From assembly GCF_044704955.1 (NCBI RefSeq), contig NC_091989.1, forward strand, positions 104,780,001 through 104,844,000: 64,000 nucleotides of DNA, read 5' to 3'. This DNA comes from Pristiophorus japonicus. Lineage: Eukaryota. The number at the start of each line of letters is the position of its first letter. The first letter of the stretch is position 1. Made by a program: the position numbers and the translations under genes. A model generated the notes under the pieces. That model saw only the letters and a program-made list of their open reading frames with translations, did not search any database and had not been told where the DNA came from. Positions 32,470-61,564 of the stretch are shown here, piece after piece.

Positions 32470-35400
32470 CTGGTAAAATGTTTAAGAGAAAAGACAAGAA
32501 GCAGTCTCCTCCTGCGGGAGAGAAGTATAGAATACCAGGGTGGGGCACGAGGGATGAGGGTTTTGGCTCTCTTGCCAAGGTGCGAGCCCGGTTTGGACCC
32601 CCACAACATGGGGATACGCCATTAATGGAACAGAACAAAGATAGAGCCGTACCCCACGCGGTACTGTCTCTCCTGGAGGAAGCGGGCTTCCCACAGGAGA
32701 AAAATAGTCCCCCAGAAATGGGATGGATTTTGTTGACAGCCTTAAGGGCAATGTGTAAACAACTGAAGGAAAGTGAGGCAGAAAACCGACAGTTAAAACC
32801 AGCTGCTAAGATTTAGGAAAGTCAAAACTCGACCCTGACTGAAGCGGTCTGCACTGCACAAGAACGGGCTGACAAGGGCAATAAACAATCAGAAACTATA
32901 ATATGCCATCTGCCGACAGTACAAAATAAAAAGAAAACTAGACGATGGAAATTACAGCTGGATTTGAAATATATCTTTTGTATTTGCTGCTGCACGTGGT
33001 ATGGACTTGCTCAATCCGATCCCAGTGAGTGTTTAAAAGCCCATGCAAAAGCATGTGGGGAATGTATAGAAGCTGGAAAAAATTGAGAGGGCGGGGGGAA
33101 CGGGAAGAAACTAAAGACTCTCCCCCATACGCTCCGAGCTCGTAAGCTAGACCTCTTATGACAAATAAGATGAAACAGCAAGATGGGGAACAGCCGGTAA
33201 CCACTGGAGGGGTGTGTGACTTCACCACTAGTGAGTTACAAGAAATGGTTACTATAGAGGTCCGGCAAAAATATCCCTCTGCCGTTGATTGGGAAGGGGA
33301 GGTAAAACCTTGGGCTACTATGGCGGAGGGTGCGATACAGTTGCGCAACATGGCAACACAGGGAGGAATATCACCAACAATCTGGGGGGGCCAGATCAGG
33401 AGCTCTTTACGGCAGGAATGCGGAGTAGGCTGATGAAGAGTGGCCCTCCTATGATGAGGGGTGAGCTACTCGCATTATTGGGACCAGCCCAAGTGCAGTG
33501 GGTGGGGGACGCCTGCCTATTGTTAGGACAGTTAGAGGATGTAGAAGATCTCCTCAACTAGGGGTGTGGCCGGGGTCCGAGAGCACTCCCATTGAGAACC
33601 ACATCAACACAAGCTCCCGGGGATCTGAGGCCACACATTCCAATTACTTACCTGCAGGGGATTAACCATAATAAGCTTTGTTGAATGAAGAAAAACTTTG
33701 TGAATGTCTGTCTGTGAATGAAAGCGCTTTTGTGATTTTTTGACTGCGGAATTAATTTTTCATGTGCCTGAAAGCCTGTTTGGAAAATAGTGGGGCTGTC
33801 TGTTTGTTTTAGCTCCATCCACTTTTTCAAACAGAGTGAAGGTTTTTTTTAAACCCTTCGTAGTGTTGTCCTGTATGTGGGAAGTCTTCAGAAAGTGTGA
33901 ACCTTACAGGGGAAACCATACAAGCGCTCTTGGGGCGGGTATCATTAGATATGCGGTATCCCCCTACAATAGTCCTGTTTGGCCTGTGCAGAAACCCGAC
34001 AAAAGATGGAGGATGACTGTAGACTACCGACAACTGAACAAATTTGCTCCTCCCCTGGCAACCGCTGTCCCAGATGTAGTAACTATAACAGAGCGGAGTG
34101 GTATGCGGTAATCGACCTGGCCAATGAGACACACAAGGTCGGGTGAGCGCAGCAAAGCTCCATAGTGCGCTGGAAATGGTATATCGCAGACAGAGGAAAT
34201 AAAGGAAAAGAAGGAATCACCCGACTACATGAGCATGTGGCTGAATATCCACAAACAGCTGAGAGTGAACTTACGCAATCGTCTGACAGTTTAACCAAAG
34301 AGTCACCAATCACCTGGGGCATGTCTTTTGAACAGTTAACACCTGAAGAGCATAGCCATGCCTGGTTCGCAGATGGCTCAGCGGTCTGGCGAAACGGCCT
34401 TCGGCGATGGCAAGCCGCTGCCTTCAATCTAAAAACCCAGACAATTGTGCATGATGAGGGCATGGGAGGCTCCAGCCAGCTAGCAGAACTAGCAGCTGTA
34501 GTCCTTGTGTTGGAAGAGGAACAGCAACAAGTACACATATATACTGACTCATGGGCAGTAGCTAATGGCATGGCAAGCTGGATGCAAAACTGGCATGAAC
34601 ATAACTGGCAAATAACTGGGAAAGACTTGTGGGGAAAGCACCTATGGGAACAAATGTGGTCCAAAGCCCAGAAGATGAAAATAACTGTATATCGTGTGGA
34701 CGCTCACATGAAAAACACTTCAAAGACCTCTGAACATAATAACACCATTGATAATATAGCCCATGTACGGGCTGTCAAAGAGGCAGAAGGATAGAATATG
34801 GCATAGGCAAGTGGGCCCATCACAAATCTAGACATTTGGACATTCAGGGTACGATATAATGGGCACGAAATAGGGGGTTACATTTGACTACGGACGGTGT
34901 TAAACAGATCATAAACACCTGTGAAATTTGTCAAAAGGTGAAGCATTTTCCCCTACAACGACAACCCGGTGCCCATATTAAGAGAGGGACTCAACCAGCA
35001 CAAATATGGCAAGTTGATTATGTAGGACCTTTACCATTGCAACAATGGTTCCAATATTTGCTCACTGCTGTTGATACCTATTCTGGACTTTTGATAGCTT
35101 ATCCAGTGACTAAAGCGAATCAACAAAGTACGATTAAAGGACTGGAGAATTTAATCACATACTATGGTGAGCCAGCAGAAGTACAGTCCGATAATGGGTC
35201 GCACTTCACAGGTCAAACAGTGCAACAGTGGCCCATACACAATAGGATCTATTGGATGTTTCACATACCTTACTATCCGCAAGCTGCAGGGTTAATAGAA
35301 TGCATGAATGGAATACTTAAGCAATAGATTAAAATATTAACTCCCACTAACACATTGCAAGGGTGGTTAAAGGTCTTACCACAAGCAGTACGCAATCTGA

Positions 35401-37019: not shown

Positions 37020-37074
37020 ATGTCGGTGAGAGCAACAGTGCAGTACATGGCTCTTCTGGGCATCCTTTGGCCAG
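37020..37074 (+). CDS. IgSF receptor exon 1 (leader)
   Basis: ACCATG start encoding MSVRATVQYMALLGILWP. Phase-1 donor CAG|GTACC, then a 211-bp intron to the V exon, as in the split leaders of Ig/TCR genes. Confidence 0.75.
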
Positions 37075-37285: not shown

Positions 37286-37591
37286 CCGTTGAAGTAAATT
37301 CGAACAAAGTGGACCAATTCCCTAAACACATGAAGGTTGCCAGGGGCATAAATGTTTCCATGTTCTGCATATTTCCCATATTTCAAGATGCCCCCGATGT
37401 TTATTGGAGCAGAAGCGGCGAGGAGACGTTTCTGGAGCCAGACAGCAGAAAGCAATTTAATGTAAAGAAGGGCAGAGGGTCATTTGATGTCCTGAATGCG
37501 AGTGTCGCAGACTCTGGAATGTATTACTGTACAGTAAAACATAATCAAACCACTGTTGGAGATGGAAGTGGCTCCCGGCTTACTGTGTTCG
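37286..37591 (+). CDS. IgSF receptor exon 2: germline-joined V-J type domain
   Basis: Phase 1-1 exon of 306 nt (GATAG|CC...TTCG|GTAAG). Encodes VDQFP...SMFC...VYW...DSGMYYC...GDGSGSRLTVF, with canonical V-set Cys/Trp/DxGxYYC and a J-like GxG strand. Confidence 0.9.
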
Positions 37592-38911: not shown

Positions 38912-40513
38912 ATATAGAGTTAAGTCGGACAAATGAATTTGAGATACAGATCAGCCATTATCTAATTGAACGGCCTCCTCCTCTTCCTATGCCCGCATTT
39001 TAGGCTGTGCACTTGCTTACATCGAGAACTTATTTGAGACTGCCAAACTAATTTCACAAAGGAATCTTACAACACATTGAGAGGGACTGTGTTGTTCTTA
39101 CTCAATACTGGATTGGACCCCAAGTCCTAGAGCTGATGGGGCAATGTAGGAACCGAATGCCTCCTTGAAACTCGGTCTTATGCCAATTTAATTTTTTTAT
39201 ACACTCACAACCGGGCAGGATATCACCGAACATTTCTCTAAACGCCTGGGCTCCCGTATTTGTACTTGATGGTTTCCATTTACACTCCCCCCAACCCGTG
39301 ACTGCAGTTACGGCAGGAGATCAGAGAACACCGAGCCCGCCACCTCCACGGAAATTCTGCCGCATTACATATTAGATATAAACAGATTCGTGGGGAAGGA
39401 ATGGAGGAATTCTGATCTTCGGTTGGGCAGTCAACACGGTGCTGCTGGGAATAAAGGCCAAGATATTTTTCCAAGTTAATAATGCCCTGATTTAATAAAT
39501 TACTATTGTGACAAAATCGGACAAGTACAAATGTAAGGAAAAGATGTTATGGACATTGTTTGTAATAAACTGACAAAACAATGCAAACCTAATGAGGGAC
39601 TCTATTTCCAGCTAAAGAGTATCTGTAGCTCCAGCGGACAGAGGGTCACCTTAGTAACAGACGGTTGTAGGACTGATATAAGCAGAATCTTCTTCAGGCA
39701 AAACATGTTCAAAGAGCGAATAGACTTCGGGCAGGACAAAAACTCTGGAATTATATAAGACATGCACTCTGAGTTAGGATTTCCAATTGGGTTTCCCCCA
39801 TCTGTATGGATGTTGTGATCTACACAGAGATACACAATTATCAATGTAACCCTTTCGTGACGTGATAACTATTCCAGCCCTCGGTTCGCGCTCTGGGGAA
39901 AGTACATTAGAGAAAGCTGCATGATCTGAAATCTCCCCCACACAAACTGAAATGCTGAGTTAGCAACTGGAATGCGCGGGTTCTAATCTATAGATTAGCA
40001 GCATCCAGTCTGCCGTCTGTGTAGACAACGGAGATATTTCAATATATTATGTACATTTCCTCAATATTCACCGATAATTTTAGATCATATATCGAAATAT
40101 CTCTGATGTCTACACGGAATGTTGTGCAATATATGAAATATCCGAAAAACGACCAATTTTGAAATAAACCCACAAAATGTTTTACACAGCAAAGATTATT
40201 AATGAATAAAAAGGGCCGATTCCACTGTTTGTGTAGACTGGGTTGCGCTCTCCCCGATATATTCGGACAGGAACCTCACTCGGAGTCACAATCGCACGCC
40301 AGGATCTGATACTTCCATTGAGAACAGTGATGCGAGCCTCGCTGCATGTTACCGATCCTGGGACATTGGCCCTGTTTGCGTACCGTTTCCAATACCCGTC
40401 ATTTCGCTCTGCTGTGCAATCTATAAAATAAATACAAACAAGTTTAAAAAATGACAGCGCGGATAACTATTGTTAACTATACGGTAGCCGCATAAGGAGG
40501 GTAGGTAAATGAG
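38912..40513. repeat. Intronic block, copy 1 (duplicated at 42760-43589 plus 45770-46417)
   Basis: Long colinear near-identity between the copies. Examples are GAGAACTTATTTGAGACTGCCAAACT near 39024 and 42812, and GACAGCGCGGATAACTATTGT near 40453 and 46354. Confidence 0.9.
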
Positions 40514-40572
40514 AATGTCTTCCTTTAAATTGAAAAACAATGATCAATGTAATTTTTTTTTCTCCGTCAAAG

Positions 40573-40869
40573 TTCCTCCAACCCCCCTAAAAATCGTTGC
40601 TGTCGAAAGGATTTCAGCGACTTCTCTGAAACTCGAGTGTAAAACGGTTGACTTTTACCCGGGGCATTTAGAAATCTCCTGGCGAAGAGATGGTGTCGCA
40701 AATCTGACCGGAATAACAACTGTGAAAAACAGGAGCGCGGAGGGACTGTTTGAGGTTTCCAGCTGGTTGGAAGAAGCACAACCTGCCCAGAGTGGAGTTG
40801 TTTATACATGTCTGGTATCCCATGTGTCTCTTCGGGTGCCCGCCAATGTCAGCTACACCGTACAGCAAG
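40573..40869 (+). CDS. IgSF receptor exon 3: C1-set domain (C1a)
   Basis: Phase 1-1 exon of 297 nt with a strong polypyrimidine acceptor and CAAG|GTAAG donor. LECKTVDFYP...ISW...YTCLVSH is the C1-set signature (FYP, W, YxCxVxH). Confidence 0.92.
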
Positions 40870-42590: not shown

Positions 42591-43589
42591 TCTGTTCTAT
42601 GCGCACCGTGCCTTCAGCTGCCTAGACCCTAAACTTTGGAATTCCCGCCCTAATCCTCTACTCTTCTGCACATTTCTCTCCTTCTTTAAGACGTTCCTAG
42701 GATCCTACCTCAACCTGTCCTAATTGTGACTCGGTGTCAAATGTTTGATAAGGCAAGGGATATGGAGTTAAGTGGGACACATGAATTTAGGTTGTGCACT
42801 TGCGTGCATTGAGAACTTATTTGAGACTGCCAAACTCATTTCATAAATGAATCTTACAACCCATTGAGAGGGGCTATGTTGTTGTTAACCTCAATACTGG
42901 ATTGGAACCAAAGTCCTATGGCTGATGGGGCAATGTAGGAACCCAATGATTGCTTGAAACTCAGTCTTATGCCAATTGAACTTGTTTATACATTCACAAC
43001 CGGGCAGGATATCACCGAACATTTCTCTAAACGCCCCCGTATTTGTACTTGATGGTTTCCATTTACACTCCCCGCAACCCAAGACTGCAGTTATGGCAGG
43101 AGATCATGACAACACCGATCCCGCCACCTCCACGGAAATTCTGCCGCATTACATATTAGATATAAACAGATCCATGGGGAAGGAATGGAGGAATTGTGAT
43201 CTTAGGTTGGGCAGTCAACATGGTGCTGCTGGGAATAAAGGACAAAATAATTTTCCAAGTTAATAATGCCTTGATTTAGTACATTGCTATTGCTACAAAG
43301 TCAGACAAGTGCAAATGTAAGGAAAAGATGTTAAGGGGGTTGTTTGTAATAAACTGACAAACCAATGCAAACCTAATGAGAGACTCTATTTCCAGCTAAA
43401 CAGTGTCTGTAGCCCCAGCGAACAGAGGGTCACCTTAGCAACAGACGATTGTTGGACTGATATAAGCAGAATCTTCTTCAGGCAAAACGTGTTCAACAGA
43501 GCGAATAGACTTCAGGCAGGGCAAAAACCCTGGAATTATATAAGACATGCACTCTGAGTTAGGATTTCTTATTGGGTTTCCCTCATCTG

Positions 43590-43924
43590 ATCCCAGGAGA
43601 GGCAAGGACCATGGGCAGCACGCGCCAGCGCACACTGCTATATGTGTGCGCGCTCGGTCAGTGCAGCAGAGCAAGTCTCCAGTCGTCTTGGGTACTCCTT
43701 GCCACTGGACCAAGACCTAGCTTTGTCAAGCCCGTGTGGTGTCTGGTGTGCAATGGTCACCACACATTAAAAAAAATCCAAGCACAGGCATCTTCCACCC
43801 TCCAACATATAGTTCGGGATCTGCAATATTAGGTCCTTCATTGAAACAACTGTGAACTCATTCCTTTTTGGCATGGGAGCAAGTCATCCTCATTTCTAGG
43901 GACTGCCTATGATGATGATGATGA
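43590..43924 (+). mobile_element. SINE-like element with an RTE-type 3' tail
   Basis: Ends CAAGTCATCCTC...GGACTGCCTATGATGATGATG, matching the tail of the RTE at 30975-31015 (reverse complement). Confidence 0.65.
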
Positions 43925-43939
43925 TATAATTTTCTCTGT

Positions 43940-45760
43940 GAAGAGAAAAAGATTAGTGAAAACAAACGTAGGTCCCTTGCAGTCAGATTCACGTAAATTT
44001 ATAATGGGAACAAAGAAATGGCAGACCAGTTAAACAAATACTTTGGTTCTGTTTTCATGAAGGAAGTCAGAAATAACCTTCTAGAAATACTAGGGGACCG
44101 AGGGTCTAGTGAGAAGGAGGAACTGAAGGATATCCTTATTAGGCAGGAAATTGTGTTAGGGAAATTGATGGGATTAAAGGCTGATAAATCCCCGGGGTCT
44201 GATAGTCTGCATCCCAGAGTACTTAAAGAAGTGGCTATAGAAATAGTGGATGCATTGGTGATCATTTTCCAACAGTCTATCGACTCTGGATCAGTTCCTA
44301 TGGACTGGAGGGTAGCTGATGTAACACCATTTTTTAAAAAGGGAGGGAGAGAGAAAACAGGTAATTATAGATTGGTTAGCCTGACATCAGTAGTGGGGGA
44401 AATGTTCGAATCAATTATGAAAGATGAAATAACAGCGCATTTGGAAAGCAGTGACAGGATCGGTCCAAGTCGGCATGGATTTATGAATGGCAAATCATGC
44501 TTGACAAATCTTCTGGAATGTTTTGAGGGTGTAACTACTCGAGTGGATAATGGAGAACCAGTGGATGTGGTCTATTTGGACTTTCAAAAGGCTTTTGACA
44601 AGGTCCCACACAAAAGATTGGTGTGTAAAATCAAAGCACATGGTATTGGGGGTAATGTACTGATGTGGATAGAGAACTGGTTGGCAGACAGGAAGCAGAG
44701 TCGGGATAAACAGATCCTTTTCAGAATGGCAGGCAGTGACTAGTGGAGTGTCGCAGGGCTCAGTGCTGGGACTCCAGCTCTTTACAAGATACATTAAAGA
44801 TTTAGATGAAGGAATTGAGTATAATATCTCCAAGTTTGCAGATGACACTAAACTGGGTGGCGGTGTGAGCTGTGAGGAGGACACTAAAAGGCTGCAGGGT
44901 GATTTGGACAGTTTAGGTGAGTGGGCAAATGCATGGCAGATGCAGTATAATGTGGATAAATGTGAGGTTATCCACTTTGGTGGCAAAAGCACGAAGGCAG
45001 AATATTATCTGAATGGCGGCAGATTAGGAAAGGGGGAGGTGCAACGAGACTTGGGTGTCACGGTTCATCAGTCATTGAAAGTTGGCATGCAGGTACAGCA
45101 GGCGGTGAAGAAGGCAAATGGTATGTTGGCCTTCATAGCTTGGGGATTTGAGTATTGGAGCAGGGAGGTCTTACTGCAGTTGTACCGGCCTGGTGAGGCC
45201 TCACCTGGAATATTGTGTTCAGTTTTGGTCTCCTAATCTGAGGAAGGACATTCTTGCTATTGAGGGAGTGCAGCGAAGGTTCACCAGACTGGTTCCCGGG
45301 ATGGCGGGACTGACATATGAGGAGAGACTGGATCAACTGGGCCTTTATACACTGGAGTTTAGAAGGATGAGAGAGGATCTCATAGAAACTTACAAGATTC
45401 TGACGGGACTGGACAGGTTAGATACGGGAAGAATGTTCCTGATGATGGGGAAGTCCAGAAGCAGGGGACATAGCCTTAGGATAAGGGGTAGGCCATTTAG
45501 GACTGAGATGAGGAGAAACTTCTTCACTCAGAGAGTTGTTAACCTGTGGAATTCCCTACCGCAGAGAGTTATTGATGCCAGTTCATTGATTATATTCAAA
45601 AGGGAGTTAGATGTGGCCCTTACAGCTAAAGGGATCAAGGGGTATGGAAAGAAAGCAGGAAAGGGGTACTGAGGTGAATGATCAGCCATGATCTAATTGA
45701 ATGGTGGTGCAGGCTCGAAGGGCCGAATGGCCTACTCCTGCACCTATTTTCTATGGTTCT
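43940..45760 (+). mobile_element. 5'-truncated CR1 LINE
   Basis: ORFs 44018-44743, 44736-45236 and 45148-45672 form a frameshifted RT, followed by a CR1 3'UTR. Confidence 0.92.
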
Positions 45761-47783
45761 GTGTGTCTATAATTATCAATATAACCCTTTCATGATTTGA
45801 AAAATATTCCAGCCCTGGAGAAAGTACATTAGGGAAAGCTGCATAATCTGAAATCTCCCCCACACAAACTGAAATGCTGAGTTAGCAACTGGAATGCGCG
45901 GGTTCTAATCTTTCGATTCGCAGCATCCAGTCTGCCGTCTGTGCAGACATCAGAGATATTTCGATATATTAGCTACATCTCCTCAAATGCACCGATAATC
46001 TAAAATATGTTTCGCAATATACGAAATATCCGATAAACGATCAATTTTCAAATAATGTTTAACACAGCAAAGATTATTAATGAATAAAAAAAGACGGTTC
46101 CACTGTTCGTGCAGACAGGGTTGCGCTCTCTCCGATATATTCGGACAGGAACCTCAGTCGGGGTCACTGCTGTCAACCACAATCCGCGCCAGGCTCTGAT
46201 ACCTCCATTGGGAACAGTGACGCGGGGCTCCCTGCATGTTACCGACCTTGGGAGTCTCGCCCTCTTTGCCTATCGTTCCCAATACATCCCGTCATACTGC
46301 TGTGCGCCGTAAAACAATTTATAAAGTAGATGCAGCCACCAAGTTTAAAAAACGACAGCGCGGATAACTATTGTGACAGTCGAACTGTAACATCATATCC
46401 AGGGTAGATAAATGAGACTATAACCCGATTTACACTATTTCACCAAGTCAAAATCGACCCCAAAGTGAGCTAATTATGGGCTGATTCCTGAAGGGAAGAT
46501 TCCCTCTGGCTAACCTTTTAGAAAACTACAATTTCACTGGAAATTGCAAACACAGATGTGGAGCAATGTTGGGCTGGTCGCGGTGTGTCGCAACGTTGCT
46601 AACATTGGCATGAAATGTAAGTCTTCTTTTGGAACAGCGTTTTTCACTAGAAACAAACCCACAAGGGACCTCTGTGAACACATTTACTATGTCCCTGCAC
46701 ATAGCGGACGTAGGAAACCCTCCTTCACGTTCCTCTCCACGCTACACGGAGAGTTTACCGTTCACTCGCCGAAACTTCGGCTGAAGAGCCGCGGAACTTA
46801 CGTTTTTTTCATGGTTTGAGCGGCTTCTCCGCCGAAGTTACAGCGAACCAGCGGGAGAATCCCGGTGGAAATATTTAAGATGTCCTCATAAAATGAGGAA
46901 TCGTCCTTTGTTTTGAAGCTTTAAGATTCCTGGAATGTTAGCAGGTCGTTGATAATCATGTGTACAGGAGGTATATGGCATGAGCGAAAGTTTCAAGATG
47001 TTTGGAAACGAATGGAATATATTGGAGCAGAAATAAGCATCTCACCTGTTCTGACGCGAAGTCTTAAAGAGCTGAGGAGAACACAGGGTTTTCAGGGCGT
47101 GGAATATCCTTTCAGAAACAGTGGTAGAAGCAGAGTCTATCATTGTTTTTTAAGTTATGTGGATAAATACGTCAACGGGACTAACTGGCCTCGTGTCTCA
47201 GAGCCGACACACGCACACTGAGCCGAATGGACTCCAGCACTGTAACGTACTATGATTTTATAACCGGATAACTATGATTCGGTAAATAGAACACACAGAT
47301 TTAAGATCATTGCCAAAGAACCAGAGGGGAAATGAGAAAAAATGTTTTACAAGGCTAGTTGTTATGATCTATAATGCACTGCCCGGAAGAGTGCTGCCAG
47401 CAGATTCAATAATAACTTTCAAACGGGAATTGGATGTACATTTGAAAAGGAATGTTTAGCAGAGCTATGGGGAAAGAGCAGAGATGTGGGACTAATGGGA
47501 TAGCTCTTTCAGAGAGCCGGCACAGGCAAGCTGGGCCCAATGGTCTCCTTCTGTGCTCCATTATTCTATGATTCTACCAAATATGGCACTTTTCGCTCTC
47601 CGTTTCGGTGCCCGTGTAATTTCTAGCTTAATGCTTAGTAATATTGGAAAACACAGAAATTAACAACGTTCGGATGAAACACTTTGTGAAACGGACCCGT
47701 CCTAAACTCGTGTTCTAAATTATAGACTGCAGAAATAACATAATAATTAGTATTTCAAACACAAACTAATGTTCTTTCCCCAG

Positions 47784-48114
47784 CCCCCCCCCCCCCCCCA
47801 CCCCAACCCCCCCAAGCTCGGCCCACTCCTCTGAGCATCGACTTGATCGAGTCTGAGTTCCGCCCACCCATTTCTCCGACTCTCGTGTGTAAAACAGCGA
47901 AGTTTTACGCTGAAGATCTCAATGTGATTTGGTATAAAAACAACGAAAAGCTTGTAACTGGGGACAATACTGAACAGCGCAGCGCGGTGGGCCTGTATGA
48001 GGTTTGCAGCACTTTCAAAGATACGGCGCATGTCCGCAGTGGGGCTCTGTACAGCTGTACAAGTGTCTCATGTCTCTCTTCAGACTCCAGCCAGTGTTAA
48101 TTACAGCTCCGAAG
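47784..48114 (+). pseudogene. IgSF receptor exon 4: second C1-set domain (C1b) with a +1 frameshift at 48059
   Basis: Two in-frame acceptors at 47783 and 47816. Reads PTPLSI...LVCKTAKFYA...VIWY...GLYEVCS...YSC[+A]QVSHVSLQTPASVNYSSE, then G|GTACC. Paralogous to C1a. As written, it stops at TAA 48098-48100. Confidence 0.85.
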
Positions 48115-48798: not shown

Positions 48799-48898
48799 GT
48801 GCTGTGTGTTTGTTGCAACGACATTTCGGGAGTGTATTGGTCATAATGGTGCTGGTGGCCATCGTTGGGAATTATTGTAAGTTGAAGTACTGTCAAAG
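48799..48898 (+). CDS. IgSF receptor transmembrane exon
   Basis: TTTGCAG|GT acceptor. Phase-1 reading gives GAVCLLQRHFGSVLVIMVLVAIVGNYCKLKYCQ. Donor AAG|GTGAG, with an alternative GTAAGT at 48877. Confidence 0.7.
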
Positions 48899-50696: not shown

Positions 50697-50768
50697 CAGG
50701 TCATACAAGAAACAACTGACTGGAACATGACAAACTGTGCTGAAGATTTCACTGCCTCCAAGGAAATT
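50697..50768 (+). other. Candidate small cytoplasmic or 3' exon of the IgSF gene
   Basis: Acceptor CTTCTTTAG|CAG and donor ATT|GTAAGT. Open only in phase 0 (QVIQETTDWNMTNCAEDFTASKEI). The phase link to the TM exon is unresolved. Confidence 0.3.
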
Positions 50769-56099: not shown

Positions 56100-59000
56100 G
56101 GGGCTAGAATCGGCACTTTTTTTGCATGCTTAATGCCCACTTAACGTCCATTTTACTGCTGAAATGACGTATAACGCCCAGATATTGCCCATTTTGGCAC
56201 AAAATGGAACAGACGGGCATTTTTCGGAAACTTATCACCGAGCGTTACTTTCCCCACGTGCTTAATGCGGGGGGAAAATATTACATAAGAATATAAGAAC
56301 ATAAGAAATAGGAACAGGAGTAGGCCATACGGCCCCTTGAGCCTGCTCCGCCATTCAATAACATCACGGCTGATCTGATCATGGATTCTGCTCCACTTTC
56401 CCCCATGGATTCTGTACCCCATTATTACCGCCCGCCCAACTTTTTGGGGCATAATCAGCAGAATGGGTGAAATCAACGGCCATAATATCACCCGGCGTTC
56501 CTTTCTGCACCGAATTAACACCGAGATTCAATACTAAAGCCAGCCCACTGTTTTTTGTTATAAAGAGCATATTTACCCAAATTAGCAGCAATGGAGATCG
56601 CCCATTGTCAATTTCACCACCTCACACACATATCGCCCACAATATCGCTCGACAAAAAAACGCCCACAAAAAGTGGAAGTAAGCGGAACGAACGCCAGCG
56701 GTGTGGCTGAGGCATTTGTTAAATCCCACTCTTTCTTGTGGAGCTGGTAGATGAAAGATTTGCCTGATGGTGCACTCATGTGAGTGACAACGCTGACACA
56801 CTGCTGTGTGTGTGCAGCTCAGACATCAATGGTGCCCATCACCTTGGTGCCAGTTAAAGATTACGTTGATTGATGTTAAGTTGTATTTAACTCTTTCATG
56901 TAATGGTCCAGCTATCTGAGAAAATGCACAACAAGGTTATGTTCAATAACAAAAATGTAATACCAACATTGGTCTGAAATCATAAGTATCACAGCCAATA
57001 ACACCCAACCATGCCCACACCCCACTTTTTCCACATTTGAGGCCGGCTTGAACGGTACTGTTCTAACATGGTTAATTCCATTGCCTGCCATGAAGTCCTG
57101 GAATTCAGTGCTTGTGAAGCACGGGCCATTGTTGCTGACCAAGATGTCCGGTAGACCGTGGGTGGCGAACATTGACCGTAGACTTTCTACCGTGGCAGAG
57201 GATGTGCTTGAATTTAAAATGTCACACTCGATCCATTTGGAGTAGGCGTCTACTACAACCAAAAACATTTTCCCCATGAAAGGACCTGCGTAGTCCACAT
57301 GGATGCGTAACCAAGGCTTGGCGGACCATGGCCAGGGGCTAAGGGGGGCTTCCCTGGGCGCATGGCCCAGCTGGGCACACGTGTTGCACCTGCGAACACA
57401 AAGTTCCAGATCTGCGTCTATCCCTGGCCACCAAACGTGTGACCTGACAATTGCCTTCATCGTGACAATGCCCGGGTGCCCATTGTGGAGTTCTCTGATG
57501 AACACTTCTCTGCCCATCTGGGGCATGACTACGTGGTTTCCCCACAGTAGGCAATCGGCCTGAATCAAGAGTTCATCCTTGCGCCTGTGAAATGGTTTAA
57601 ATTTCTCAGGGCATGCCCTGTACGTGGCTGCCCAGTCCCCATTCAGGACACATTTCTTGACTAGAGACAATAGCGGGTCTCTATTTGTCCAGACTTTAAT
57701 CTGACGGGCTGTCACGGGTGAGCCTTCGCTTCCGAAAGCTTCAACAGCCATGACCATCTCAGCACCATGCTCGGTAGCCCCCTCAGTGGTGGCTAGTGGG
57801 AGCCTGCTGAGTGCATCGGCGCAGTTTTCGGTGCCCGGTCTGTGCCGAATTGTGTAGTCATAGGCAGCTAACGTGAGTGCCCACCTCTGTATGCGGGCCG
57901 ATGTGTTTGCATTTATGGCCTTGTTGTCGGCCAAAAGGGACGTTAGGGGTTTGTGATCTGTCTCCAGCTCAAATTTCCTGCCAAACAGGTACTGGTGCAT
58001 TTTCTTTACCGCATATACACATGCAAGCGCCTCCTTTTCTACCATCCCATAGCCCCTTTCTGCCTGGGACAGACTCCTGGAGGCATAAGCTACCAGCTGT
58101 AACTGACCCTTGGCATTGACATGCTGCAACATACACCCGACACTATAGGAAGACGCATCGCACGTTAACACAAGTCTCTTACATGAGTCATATAGCGTTA
58201 ACAGGTTGTTGGAACATAACAAATTGCGTGCTCTATTAAAAGCCCTTTCCTGGCTGTCCCCCCAGACCCATTCGCGACCTTTGCATAGGAGCACGTGTAG
58301 CGGCTCTAGCAGCGTGTTCAATTTTGGAAGAAAGTTACCAAAATAGTTCAGGAGCCCCAGGAACGAATGCAGCTCCGTCGTGTTACGGGGTCTGGGTGCT
58401 CTCTGGATCGCTTTCGTCTTGGATGCAGTAGGGCTGATCCCGTCTGCTGCTACCCTCATCCCCAGGAATTCTACCTCTGGAGCTAGGAAGATGCACTTCG
58501 CCTTTTTCAGTCGCAGACCTACCCGGTCCAGTCTGTGTAGCACCTCCTCCAGGTTGTGGAGGTGTTCTTCAGTATCGTAACCCGTAATGAGGATGTCGTC
58601 CTGAAAAATCACCGTCCCTGGAATCGACTTGAGGAGGCTTTCCATATTTCGTTGGAAGATCGCGGCAGCCGAGCGAATCCCGAATGGACATCTGTTGTAC
58701 TCAAACAACCCCTTGTGTGTTGTGATGGTGGTCAGCTTCTTCGATTCACTCGCCAGCTCCTGGGTCATGTAAGCTGAGGTCATGTCCAATTTTGAAAAAA
58801 GTTTGCCACCGGATAGCGTCGCAAAGAGGTCCTCCACTCTCGGTAGCGGGTACTGGTCTTGGAGTGACACCCGATTGATGGTGGCCTTGTAATCGCCACA
58901 TATCCTGACCGACCCATCCGCCTTGAGCACCGGCACAATCGGGCTCGCCCAGTCACTGAATTCGACTGGCGAGATGATGCCTTCCCTCAGCAGGTGGTTC

Positions 59001-61564
59001 AATTCGCCTTCTATCTTTTCCCGCATCATGTACGGCATCGCTCTGGCCTTGTGGTGTACTGGTCTGGCGTCCAGGTTTTTGTGAATCACTACCTTGGCCC
59101 CCATGAAAGTGCCAATGCTGGGTTGAAATAATGAGTCAAATTTGTCCAGGATCTGTGAGCATGATACTCGCTCCACAGAGGAAATTGCATTGACATCGCC
59201 CCATTTCCAGTTCATGACAGCAAGCCAACTCCTCCCCAGTAGTGCGGGACCGTCCCCCGGGACAATCCAGAGTGGCAACCTCTTCTCCGAATCTTTGCCA
59301 ATCGATCGTCCCTGACTGCCCCTGTTATTGTCCTTCAGTGCACCATTAACAGGTGTTGATGGCCCCATTACTGGCCGCAATAGCGTGAATCGCTGTTCAG
59401 CTTGCCATTGTCTCTGTCGAACTCCTCCTCTGGGTTAGACTACATGTTGGGGCATGCCTGACTGCCCTTGTCTGCCTGGAGAACTGTGTGCTGCTTTAAC
59501 AATGTTGAATCTCTGTCCCAACCATTCCTTAACACAGTACCTCTCGTCTGTTCTGCTAGTGGCCATGCTCGCGTGGTTTAAATCCCAGTTTCTTGTCGCC
59601 ATTGATACGTCCTTACTACACAGTATAAATGCACACAAGGCCCATGCTTGAGAGAAGGTCAGTCTGTGACCTGTCCTTTATTCCTTAGCACTCAAGTGAT
59701 GAAGGTGGGTGGAGCTTCCCCTTTTATGCCTGAAGGTCCAGGTTAGGAGTGTCTCCCACCTAGTGGTCAGTGTTCTCATGGTGTACAACTTAGGTCAGTT
59801 TATACATGGGTTACAATGCTGGTTGAATACATGACAGGCGCCATCCTGGGGTCAAAAGGGGAGCCTTGTGGCGAGGTGCTTGGGGCCGGTACCTCCAGAG
59901 TGGAGGCGGGAATGACCAGAGGATGACTAGATGGCCTTGGGGTGAAAGGGCTTCTGGAGCGTGGCGATGCAGGTTCTTCGAAGTCCGTGCTCTCATCTGT
60001 ACAGAACAGATCCAGCGGATTAATGGGCGAGAATCGGAGCTCCTCAGCACCAGATGTCATAGGATCGTCTGCCGACTCCTGCCCCACACCCCCACCTTCT
60101 GGTCTCTATGGTCTTGCCTGGGGCCGTGCTACTGGCTGAACTGCAAAACACAAATGAGGTTATTAGAGAAGAAGTGGGTGCTCGGGTCACAAGGTGAGTC
60201 CAGCGCTACACACAGCATATGCACGACAGAAGCACCACCCATATCAAAATCATCACAGACATCACATTTCATGACCAACAACACATGTACATTGCAATGA
60301 TTTTCATTAGGCCAGCATTATTTCTAGGACAATTTTAGAAATCATCTATCATATATGATTGTTCGGGTCTAGCATCTATTGACTTTACATAACGTAATGG
60401 TGTAAGCTTTACTCATGTGGCATCACTTCAGGATCTGCAGATGCATCCGTGACCATCTGAGGGTGCTTCCCCATGAATGCGAGCACACGCTCCTCCATGT
60501 CAATGATGTCGCTGGGAACTGACCCCCACCTGTTCACCTCTGCATGAATCTCATCGCTGATAGCTTTTTCTGTAAAAGGTGACAGGGCGACATGGCATGA
60601 GATCATTGCATGATATCATTGCTAGGTAATGGCACAGACACTGATACAACACATAACCGACAGATGTAATCATCATTATTATGCTAATTATCATTCTTTA
60701 CCATGACCGCAGGCTTTGAGTAAAACATTCCCGGTAAAAGTGCAAGACCACACATCTGCTGATAGTCACTCATGACGGTTACAAATCAAATGATATAAAT
60801 ACTTAAGTACATGTAAATGAATGTAATACTCTTGCAGATCCCACAAGGTCCTTCCATCGTTTGCGGCATTGGTTGCCCTCACTCACCTCGTTGGTTACCA
60901 ACGAGACCACCTCTGCTATCTCGGTTCATATCCTCTGGTATGCCTTTGGGGTGGGCTTCCCACGCCCTCCCTGTATCAAATCACCCCAGCGTAACTCGAC
61001 CTCCTGCAAGAGGGAGGCATTTGCCTCATCCGACAAGCTCCTCGCTCTATTGCGGCCTCCAATGTGCTCCTCTCCCAGCTCACTGATCTCTCCAGTGTCA
61101 GTCTCCACAGCGTGCTGTGATGTCTCCTCCTCTCTCTCGATTATCGACCAAATTCCATCAAATATGTGGCTGGAAACACCTACTTTTTGTTTGGCTACTT
61201 GCTGTGAAGCTCTAAAGTCTCGCTCCTTCCTCCCAAAGCAGCCACACCACACCCAGCCACGCCTTCAGTCCCTCTGACCTCCCTCTCTCTTTGTCGCCTA
61301 TTCTGCTAATGTCATGGTGACCCTTGGCCTTCGGAATCACGGCAATGGAGCATTGCCATGCCGTTGCTAAGGATGGCCACACTTTATGGCAGAAGGTCAA
61401 AAAAATTTTACGATACCGCCCATTTTATATCGCTTGCAGTAACGCCCATTTTCAAAAATGTAAACTAGGTGTTTTGAGAATGGGCCAGAAGCCGGCGATC
61501 TCAAAACCCTTTTCATCGCCCACGCCAGAAAAATCACCAACACAAAAGTGGAGGTTCTAGCCCC
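56100..61564 (-). mobile_element. Harbinger-like DNA transposon remnant hosting Gypsy D
   Basis: Imperfect inverted ends GGGGCTAGAA...CACTTTT at 56100 and 61564. Myb/SANT-like exon at about 60840-61250 (RARSLSDEANASLLQEVELRW...CRKRWKDL). Weak transposase-like PKVMGTID near 56830. The TSD is not clean. Confidence 0.5.
57036..59836 (-). mobile_element. Gypsy LTR retrotransposon D: 5' LTR, deleted gag/protease, open RT-RNase H-partial integrase
   Basis: LTR 59603-59836 and PBS TGGCGACAAG at 59592-59601. The 822-aa ORF 56912-59380 contains FQDD, TCDAS, ETDHKPL, HPG...WWPG...C..C and HVDYAGP. Homology ends at PASN near 57036. Confidence 0.9.

Follow-up and report, generated by a model that had tools for sequence, protein, structure and literature searches.

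A compact V domain, predicted to lack CDR2, in a family of cartilaginous-fish VJ-C1 genes that likely encode paired receptors

Our results demonstrate that the gene examined here, from a window of 64,000 nucleotides of the Pristiophorus japonicus genome (NC_091989.1, positions 104,780,001 to 104,844,000), is not an antigen receptor: it has a leader, a germline-joined VJ exon without a recombination signal and one C1. The shortening of its V domain is family-wide, in a VJ-C1 receptor family of the paired type. We put at roughly 70% the probability that the compact VJ domain belongs to a non-rearranging L-VJ-C1 gene from a family of about 40 copies in cartilaginous fish, whose members are likely paired inhibitory and activating receptors of immune cells and are predicted to bind their ligand through this domain as a single unit. 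An earlier note on this DNA had described the domain and left out this main context, that is, the VJ-C1 receptor gene, the large family and the paired tails. What the window adds is a compact domain, predicted to be CDR2-less, measured against the VNAR and the control V exons of the same genome.

All exons lie on the forward strand. The leader (37020..37074) runs from an ATG to a phase-1 GT donor and is 71 to 78% identical to the leaders of horn shark relatives. The VJ exon (37286..37591) is open, has AG/GT ends and phase 1-1, and contains the B-strand cysteine (37366-68), a tryptophan (37405-07), the F-strand cysteine (37528-30) and a J-like G strand. An intact, phase 1-1 C1-set exon follows (40573..40869; Pfam C1-set, E 5e-9) with 70 to 75% identity to horn shark relatives, and over the whole L-VJ-C1 layout the exon-by-exon identity to horn shark proteins is 67 to 78%. 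The two cysteines occupy positions 27 and 81 in the 101-aa translation, and our recount in this intact exon confirmed the 53 residues reported between them, together with the KVDQFP start and the three N-glycosylation sequons (NVS at 22, NAS at 70 and NQT at 86). Other end motifs are a V-x-Q-x-P start and a G-x-G-x-x-L-x-V end, and the exon scores above the Pfam cutoff as both V-set (38.4 bits) and I-set (32.3 bits). The spacing is unusually short, as had been claimed: it falls outside the 65 to 72 residues of all 20 control V exons, which were picked among the best-scoring V-set matches in this genome, and the two IgNAR V genes found there have 60. The labels of the control exons (IgL, IgH, TCR-alpha, NCR3-like and others) were assigned by us on the basis of motifs.

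Queries with the V exon and the C1 exon located 37 and 38 places, respectively, on chromosome C13, in clusters near 85-86, 98, 101-105 and 111 Mb, and a second query added three more family loci. The cysteine spacing was 53 to 59 in 29 of 40 C13 loci (58 in 16, 53 in 5); 10 of the remaining 11 have no canonical pattern, and one is broken and mis-paired (L085, 78). Among 47 database proteins examined, 40 belong to the family, two were unscored (P0177 and P0178) and five, namely, four turtle-like proteins and one teleost protein, fall outside the clade; P0169 was left out, its source in another genome not being established. All 40 scored family proteins again have a spacing of 53 to 59. A lesion private to this copy is ruled out as the cause of the short spacing by this shared range. 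The value of 53 stands at its low end (mode, 58), and the 53-residue subfamily, present in horn shark, catshark and stingray, has two fewer residues than the mode between Cys and Trp and three fewer from Trp to the D-x-G motif. Named members come from horn shark, catshark, sevengill shark, smooth-hound, rays, sawfish and elephant shark (a chimaera), under inconsistent automatic database names (SIRP-alpha-like, tapasin-, CD276-, B7H6- and Ig-lambda-like). Median identity among 25 family copies is 39%. One elephant shark member (P0095) is modelled without C1 (VJ-TM-ITIM), and a further single-exon VJ-like domain on the same chromosome (L064, G000:C13:21.93 Mb), with a spacing of 69, lies outside the family. 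An Atlas search with a homologue returned generic V/C1 clusters only. No account of the VJ-C1 family was found in our literature search, to whose reach the earlier papers on NKp30/B7, shark NCR3 and UrIg did not belong.

Loss of C'' and CDR2 is predicted by two AlphaFold models. That of the window V domain (pLDDT 91) contains strands A, A', B, C, D, E, F and G, with a one-residue bridge in the C' position and C'' absent, and that of a 58-residue paralogue (pLDDT 90) has the same strands, the same bridge and no C''. In these models, the proposal that the whole C'/C'' region is missing holds for C'' and CDR2, but a vestigial one-residue C' remains. In Foldseek, VNARs hold ranks 1 to 4 for the window V model. 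By VIA, VNAR (Z 14.7, rmsd 2.1, 96 residues aligned) is tied with NCAM2 Ig1 (14.5, 2.1, 94) and TCR-alpha (14.4, 1.8, 94); in the wide search NCAM2 Ig1 scored 14.5 versus 14.4 for VNAR, and the tie of VNAR and NCAM recurred in both wide searches. NKp30 and SIRP D1 were absent among the fold-search rows listed, which excludes nothing.

The domain resembles VNAR but is not one; neither the level of identity nor the N-terminal motif lends support to kinship, and the tree is compatible with it. The likeness of the start to RVDQTP had been taken as a VNAR sign. We discarded it as evidence, since the N-terminal 41 aa gave no VNAR match up to E 10 and only 4 of 25 copies begin with KVDQF; what survives of the proposed VNAR-like or convergent minimal V includes the predicted lack of CDR2 and the structural nearness. 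Near the VJ exon we found no RSS-like match, and the G strand lies within the same exon; the IgNAR V (L106 and L111) and TCR-alpha V have recombination signals after the F-strand cysteine. One family-type C1 follows the window V, in place of an IgNAR or TCR-delta constant region. Family members share with the two IgNAR V a mean identity of 0.20 to 0.21, compared with 0.21 to 0.23 for NCR3-like, 0.24 for CD8-like and 0.16 to 0.22 for Ig/TCR sequences; a pairwise alignment with NAR V gave 27% over 82 aa. In a 29-row tree, a branch with 99/99 support separates the 13 family rows from the VNAR, NCR3-like, TCR and Ig sequences, and in a 79-row tree, run in quick mode only, the 58 family rows have an SH-aLRT of 86. 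AU tests on the 29-row tree rejected none of the clades of the family with VNAR (p 0.28), NCR3-like (0.25) or turtle multi-V (0.29) sequences. Since a family-plus-VNAR clade is not rejected, the independent origin that we favor is a preference and not a result. As to the sequences compared, L106 and L111 (G000:C2090) are two IgNAR-type V genes, with an IgNAR-like C1 6 kb after the V of L106. P0025 (green turtle), P0044, P0054 and P0110 are multi-VJ receptors with a first-domain spacing of 59 to 60 and a branch of their own; two have ITIM-like tails, and the group is possibly a further case of V shortening.

A 2004 paper, cited in a review, is said to have derived VNAR from a cell-surface receptor. 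This raises the possibility of a common descent of the family and the VNAR/NAR-TCR domain, the family being a non-rearranging relative of that proposed source. The places of VNAR in the fold searches (ranks 1 to 4 in Foldseek, first or tied first by VIA with both models), a spacing close to the 60 of the IgNAR V in the same genome, the presence of the family in a chimaera and the survival of the joint clade in the AU test all accord with such descent, as does the surface-receptor origin proposed in the accessible part of PMC4622739. However, the fold ranking favors short domains through length alone, NCAM and TCR-alpha lie within 1 Z of VNAR, identity to VNAR is no higher than to NCR3-like or CD8-like sequences, and the IgNAR V that we detected are located on contig C2090 and have recombination signals; the same accessible text calls VNAR homologous to TCR V-alpha and V-kappa. 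We consider shared descent unlikely, and quite unlikely the more specific idea that the CDR2-less VJ-C1 family is the surviving non-rearranging kin of a receptor whose cousin was split by RAG, founding IgNAR and NAR-TCR. The tie with NCAM2 could also mean that this is an ordinary I-set domain of the adhesion type, labelled V solely due to its J-like strand. Both models have the A/A' split, short C' and missing C'' by which the I-set is defined in the accessible part of PMC8470474 (where VNAR itself is described as topologically I-set-like), NCAM2 Ig1 holds ranks 1 and 2 by VIA, multi-Ig proteins top the sequence searches, and the Pfam I-set profile passes its cutoff for the window copy. But V-set outscores I-set in both copies tested, and the two end motifs, the position N-terminal to C1 and the ITIM tails speak against this reading, which we regard as very improbable. 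The refuting test that the earlier note had set itself, classification as an ordinary I-set or C2 domain, thus came out half in favor of refutation: the topology is I-set-like and NCAM2 Ig1 equals VNAR, but the class favored by Pfam is V-set.

Orthology to SIRP has to be weighed with these. The family would then comprise true cartilaginous-fish SIRP genes, with one C1 in place of two, recognizing a CD47-like self marker. NSFL1C, one of the genes with a SEP domain, is a neighbor of SIRP. SEP-domain genes map to C12 and C1, with no Ig exon within 200 kb around the one on C12, but the family's chromosome, C13, carries FTO. The window gene has the SIRP-type order of a V and then a C1-set domain, its family has members with ITIM and with charged TM that are paired in the SIRP manner at motif level only, and SIRP is, in the accessible part of PMC2785349, the known non-antigen-receptor family with V plus C1. 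A PDB sequence search with a V-C1 homologue placed SIRP-alpha second (E 9e-11), behind titin and nearly equal to Ig light chains (E 5e-10), and some database names read SIRP-alpha-like, although these names disagree among themselves. Yet 65 residues, as counted on the alignment, separate the cysteines of SIRP-alpha D1, versus 53 in the window V and 53 to 59 in the family, and the window gene has one intact C1 (a second is frameshifted), not the two of SIRP. We judge orthology to be rather unlikely.

J segments carry Phe/Trp at the column scored for V-V pairing. None of 25 intact copies keeps this residue; 18 have Asn, 16 of these as a sequon, and five close copies have Asp. The compact domain is probably unpaired, without Fv-like pairing, because Phe/Trp is lost in 25 of 25 copies and a sequon takes its place in 16. 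The fixed short CDR3-equivalent that had been proposed was borne out: the FG loop is germline-fixed and of equal length in 21 of 24 scorable copies. Entropy over the 25 intact copies was highest in FG (2.35 bits), but the D, A and E strands (2.0 to 2.2) exceeded BC (1.91), and we therefore rejected CDR-focused variability among the paralogues. Of the 24 amino-acid changes that distinguish the five close copies, 8 lie within residues 41 to 50, a segment picked post hoc, and the tip of FG carries a sequon in every one of the five. Since changes cluster there and not in BC or FG, and since the FG tip bears this sequon, ligand may speculatively be bound through the C-C' edge.

At the 3' end, the window gene remains homologous to the 104.873 Mb gene up to about 42754, short of the membrane exon of the latter. 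The place of the membrane exon in close relatives is occupied by a duplicated, repeat-interrupted V-C1 intron (42786..46417, forward), which matches 38999-39804 at 90% and 39836-40514 at 77%. A second C1-like exon, of a different subfamily, follows (47815..48114, forward, 5' boundary approximate; Pfam C1-set, E 2e-6), with 69% identity to P0135 versus 47% for the first C1 and a frameshift near its 3' end. The copy at 104.98 Mb has the same hybrid block and the same frameshift, so that the latter is not a sequencing slip. A candidate membrane exon (48799..48898, forward), weakly predicted from an Arg before a short hydrophobic core, is the top match in the window to the family-TM profile (E 0.036 among 6352 ORFs) and has a further copy at 105.00 Mb only; a possible short cytoplasmic exon without ITIM (50700..50767, forward), with an acceptor-like site by eye, is speculative. 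As the membrane exon of the relatives is absent, anchoring is uncertain, and the product of the window copy is likely short-tailed or secreted, unless the gene is in decay. One presumed-RNA data set gave a single 210-nt contig on the V exon, with 17 differences and no splice joints for the gene, which speaks neither for nor against expression. Retrovirus-like pol fragments (33791-35327, forward; RNase H, E 1e-17, and integrase core, E 3e-20, in separate frames) lie about 1.7 kb upstream of the leader, and about 57000-59300 on the reverse strand resembles, by eye, an LTR-retrotransposon pol region.

Four neighbors have V domains 88 to 92% identical to the window V. Those at 104.873 and 105.042 Mb combine a neutral TM with an ITIM-type tail (the latter tail with a stop), the 104.472 Mb copy has an Arg-bearing membrane exon, with no leader within 1.4 kb upstream, and the fourth, at 104.98 Mb, has a hybrid end like that of the window copy; tails were traced for only these five copies in this genome. 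A catshark protein of the 53-residue subfamily, P0174, has the same Arg TM as the 104.472 Mb copy; ITIM tails are present in members from horn shark and stingray. Of 39 database proteins, 17 combine a TM with an ITIM-like match (one spurious, P0174), 9 have short tails, 2 have long tails without ITIM and 11 have no TM at the threshold used; a clear Arg-type TM is present in only 3. A search for more ITIM or Arg-TM exons, too insensitive for a census, recovered known close copies only. Mean divergence among the five close copies is 0.047 in V, 0.098 in C1 and 0.095 to 0.35 in four downstream intron pieces, and between the window and Arg-TM copies the values are 0.026 versus 0.119; amino-acid changes are relatively more frequent in V (24:6 versus 38:24 in C1), but not significantly so (Fisher p 0.10). 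The low V divergence, clearest for the Arg-TM copy, fits a homogenization of V across signaling types, which paired receptors would be expected to show; its source could equally be selection or exon shuffling of recent date.

By analogy with SIRP and NKp30, ITIM members would recruit SHP-type phosphatases and Arg members would couple to an activating adaptor. Gene conversion or exon exchange, by keeping the V exons similar, would let both receptor types see the same ligand, which the compact domain is predicted to bind as one unit. Its shortening may have arisen independently of VNAR, as a non-pairing domain can presumably lose its C'' edge. Few receptor families of NK or myeloid cells have been identified in sharks, and a VJ-C1 family of about 40 genes, with tails of inhibitory and activating type, is a direct candidate. 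It also provides a second shark V-type domain predicted to be CDR2-less, here throughout a family, and makes the idea of VNAR from a surface receptor, as put forward in the accessible text of PMC4622739, testable against convergence in unpaired domains. In the case of convergence, C'' would have been lost together with V-V pairing on more than one occasion.

NCR3 membership is ruled out by location, the C1 exon and a separate branch. The NCR3-like genes in this genome are on C19 and have a spacing of 67 to 69 and a TM directly after V; the same contig carries a class II beta-like C1 exon (55.85 Mb). These genes and that exon were identified by motifs, and a Pfam MHC_II_beta profile search of the genome gave no match. 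Four single-exon VJ genes at G000:C19:15.89-15.99 Mb (L055-L058, L102-L104) are likely of the NCR3 family, and two have a nearby TM bearing Arg or Lys. IgW-like heavy-chain constant exons (L042, L044 and L092; G000:C13:187.03-187.05 Mb) lie close to the end of the same chromosome, 80 Mb from the cluster, with no V within 40 kb upstream.

Comparison with known systems suggests a design shared in parts with several of them. NCR3/NKp30 has a single-exon VJ and, in some members, an Arg-bearing TM, whereas the window gene has a C1 exon after V and its family is on C13. UrIg and UrIg2 are likewise non-rearranging VJ-C1 elasmobranch genes but, as described in the accessible part of PMC12227049, have several C1 domains, dimerize, have a VH-like V and lie in the MHC or an antigen-receptor complex; the accessible part of PMC10751288 mentions UrIg and VJ-C1 genes in tetrapods, with this family not among them. 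The NITRs of ray-finned fish are clustered single-exon VJ genes and predicted NK receptors whose second domain, according to the portion of bioRxiv 10.1101/2021.06.11.448072 consulted, is I-type with a J motif, unlike the C1-set domain here. With VNAR the compact domain shares a predicted short C', no C'' or CDR2, an I-set-like topology and a Z of about 14; it differs in its exon without recombination signal, with the J-like strand in the same exon, in its fixed short FG loop, in sequence (20 to 23% identity) and in belonging to a membrane receptor family with one C1. SIRP is the closest design among known families: it has a non-rearranging V plus C1, ITIM and charged-TM members and single-domain binding (accessible parts of PMC2785349 and PMC3716694), whereas the family described here has one C1, a V with 6 to 12 fewer residues from cysteine to cysteine, about 40 divergent copies and an unproven synteny with the SIRP locus.
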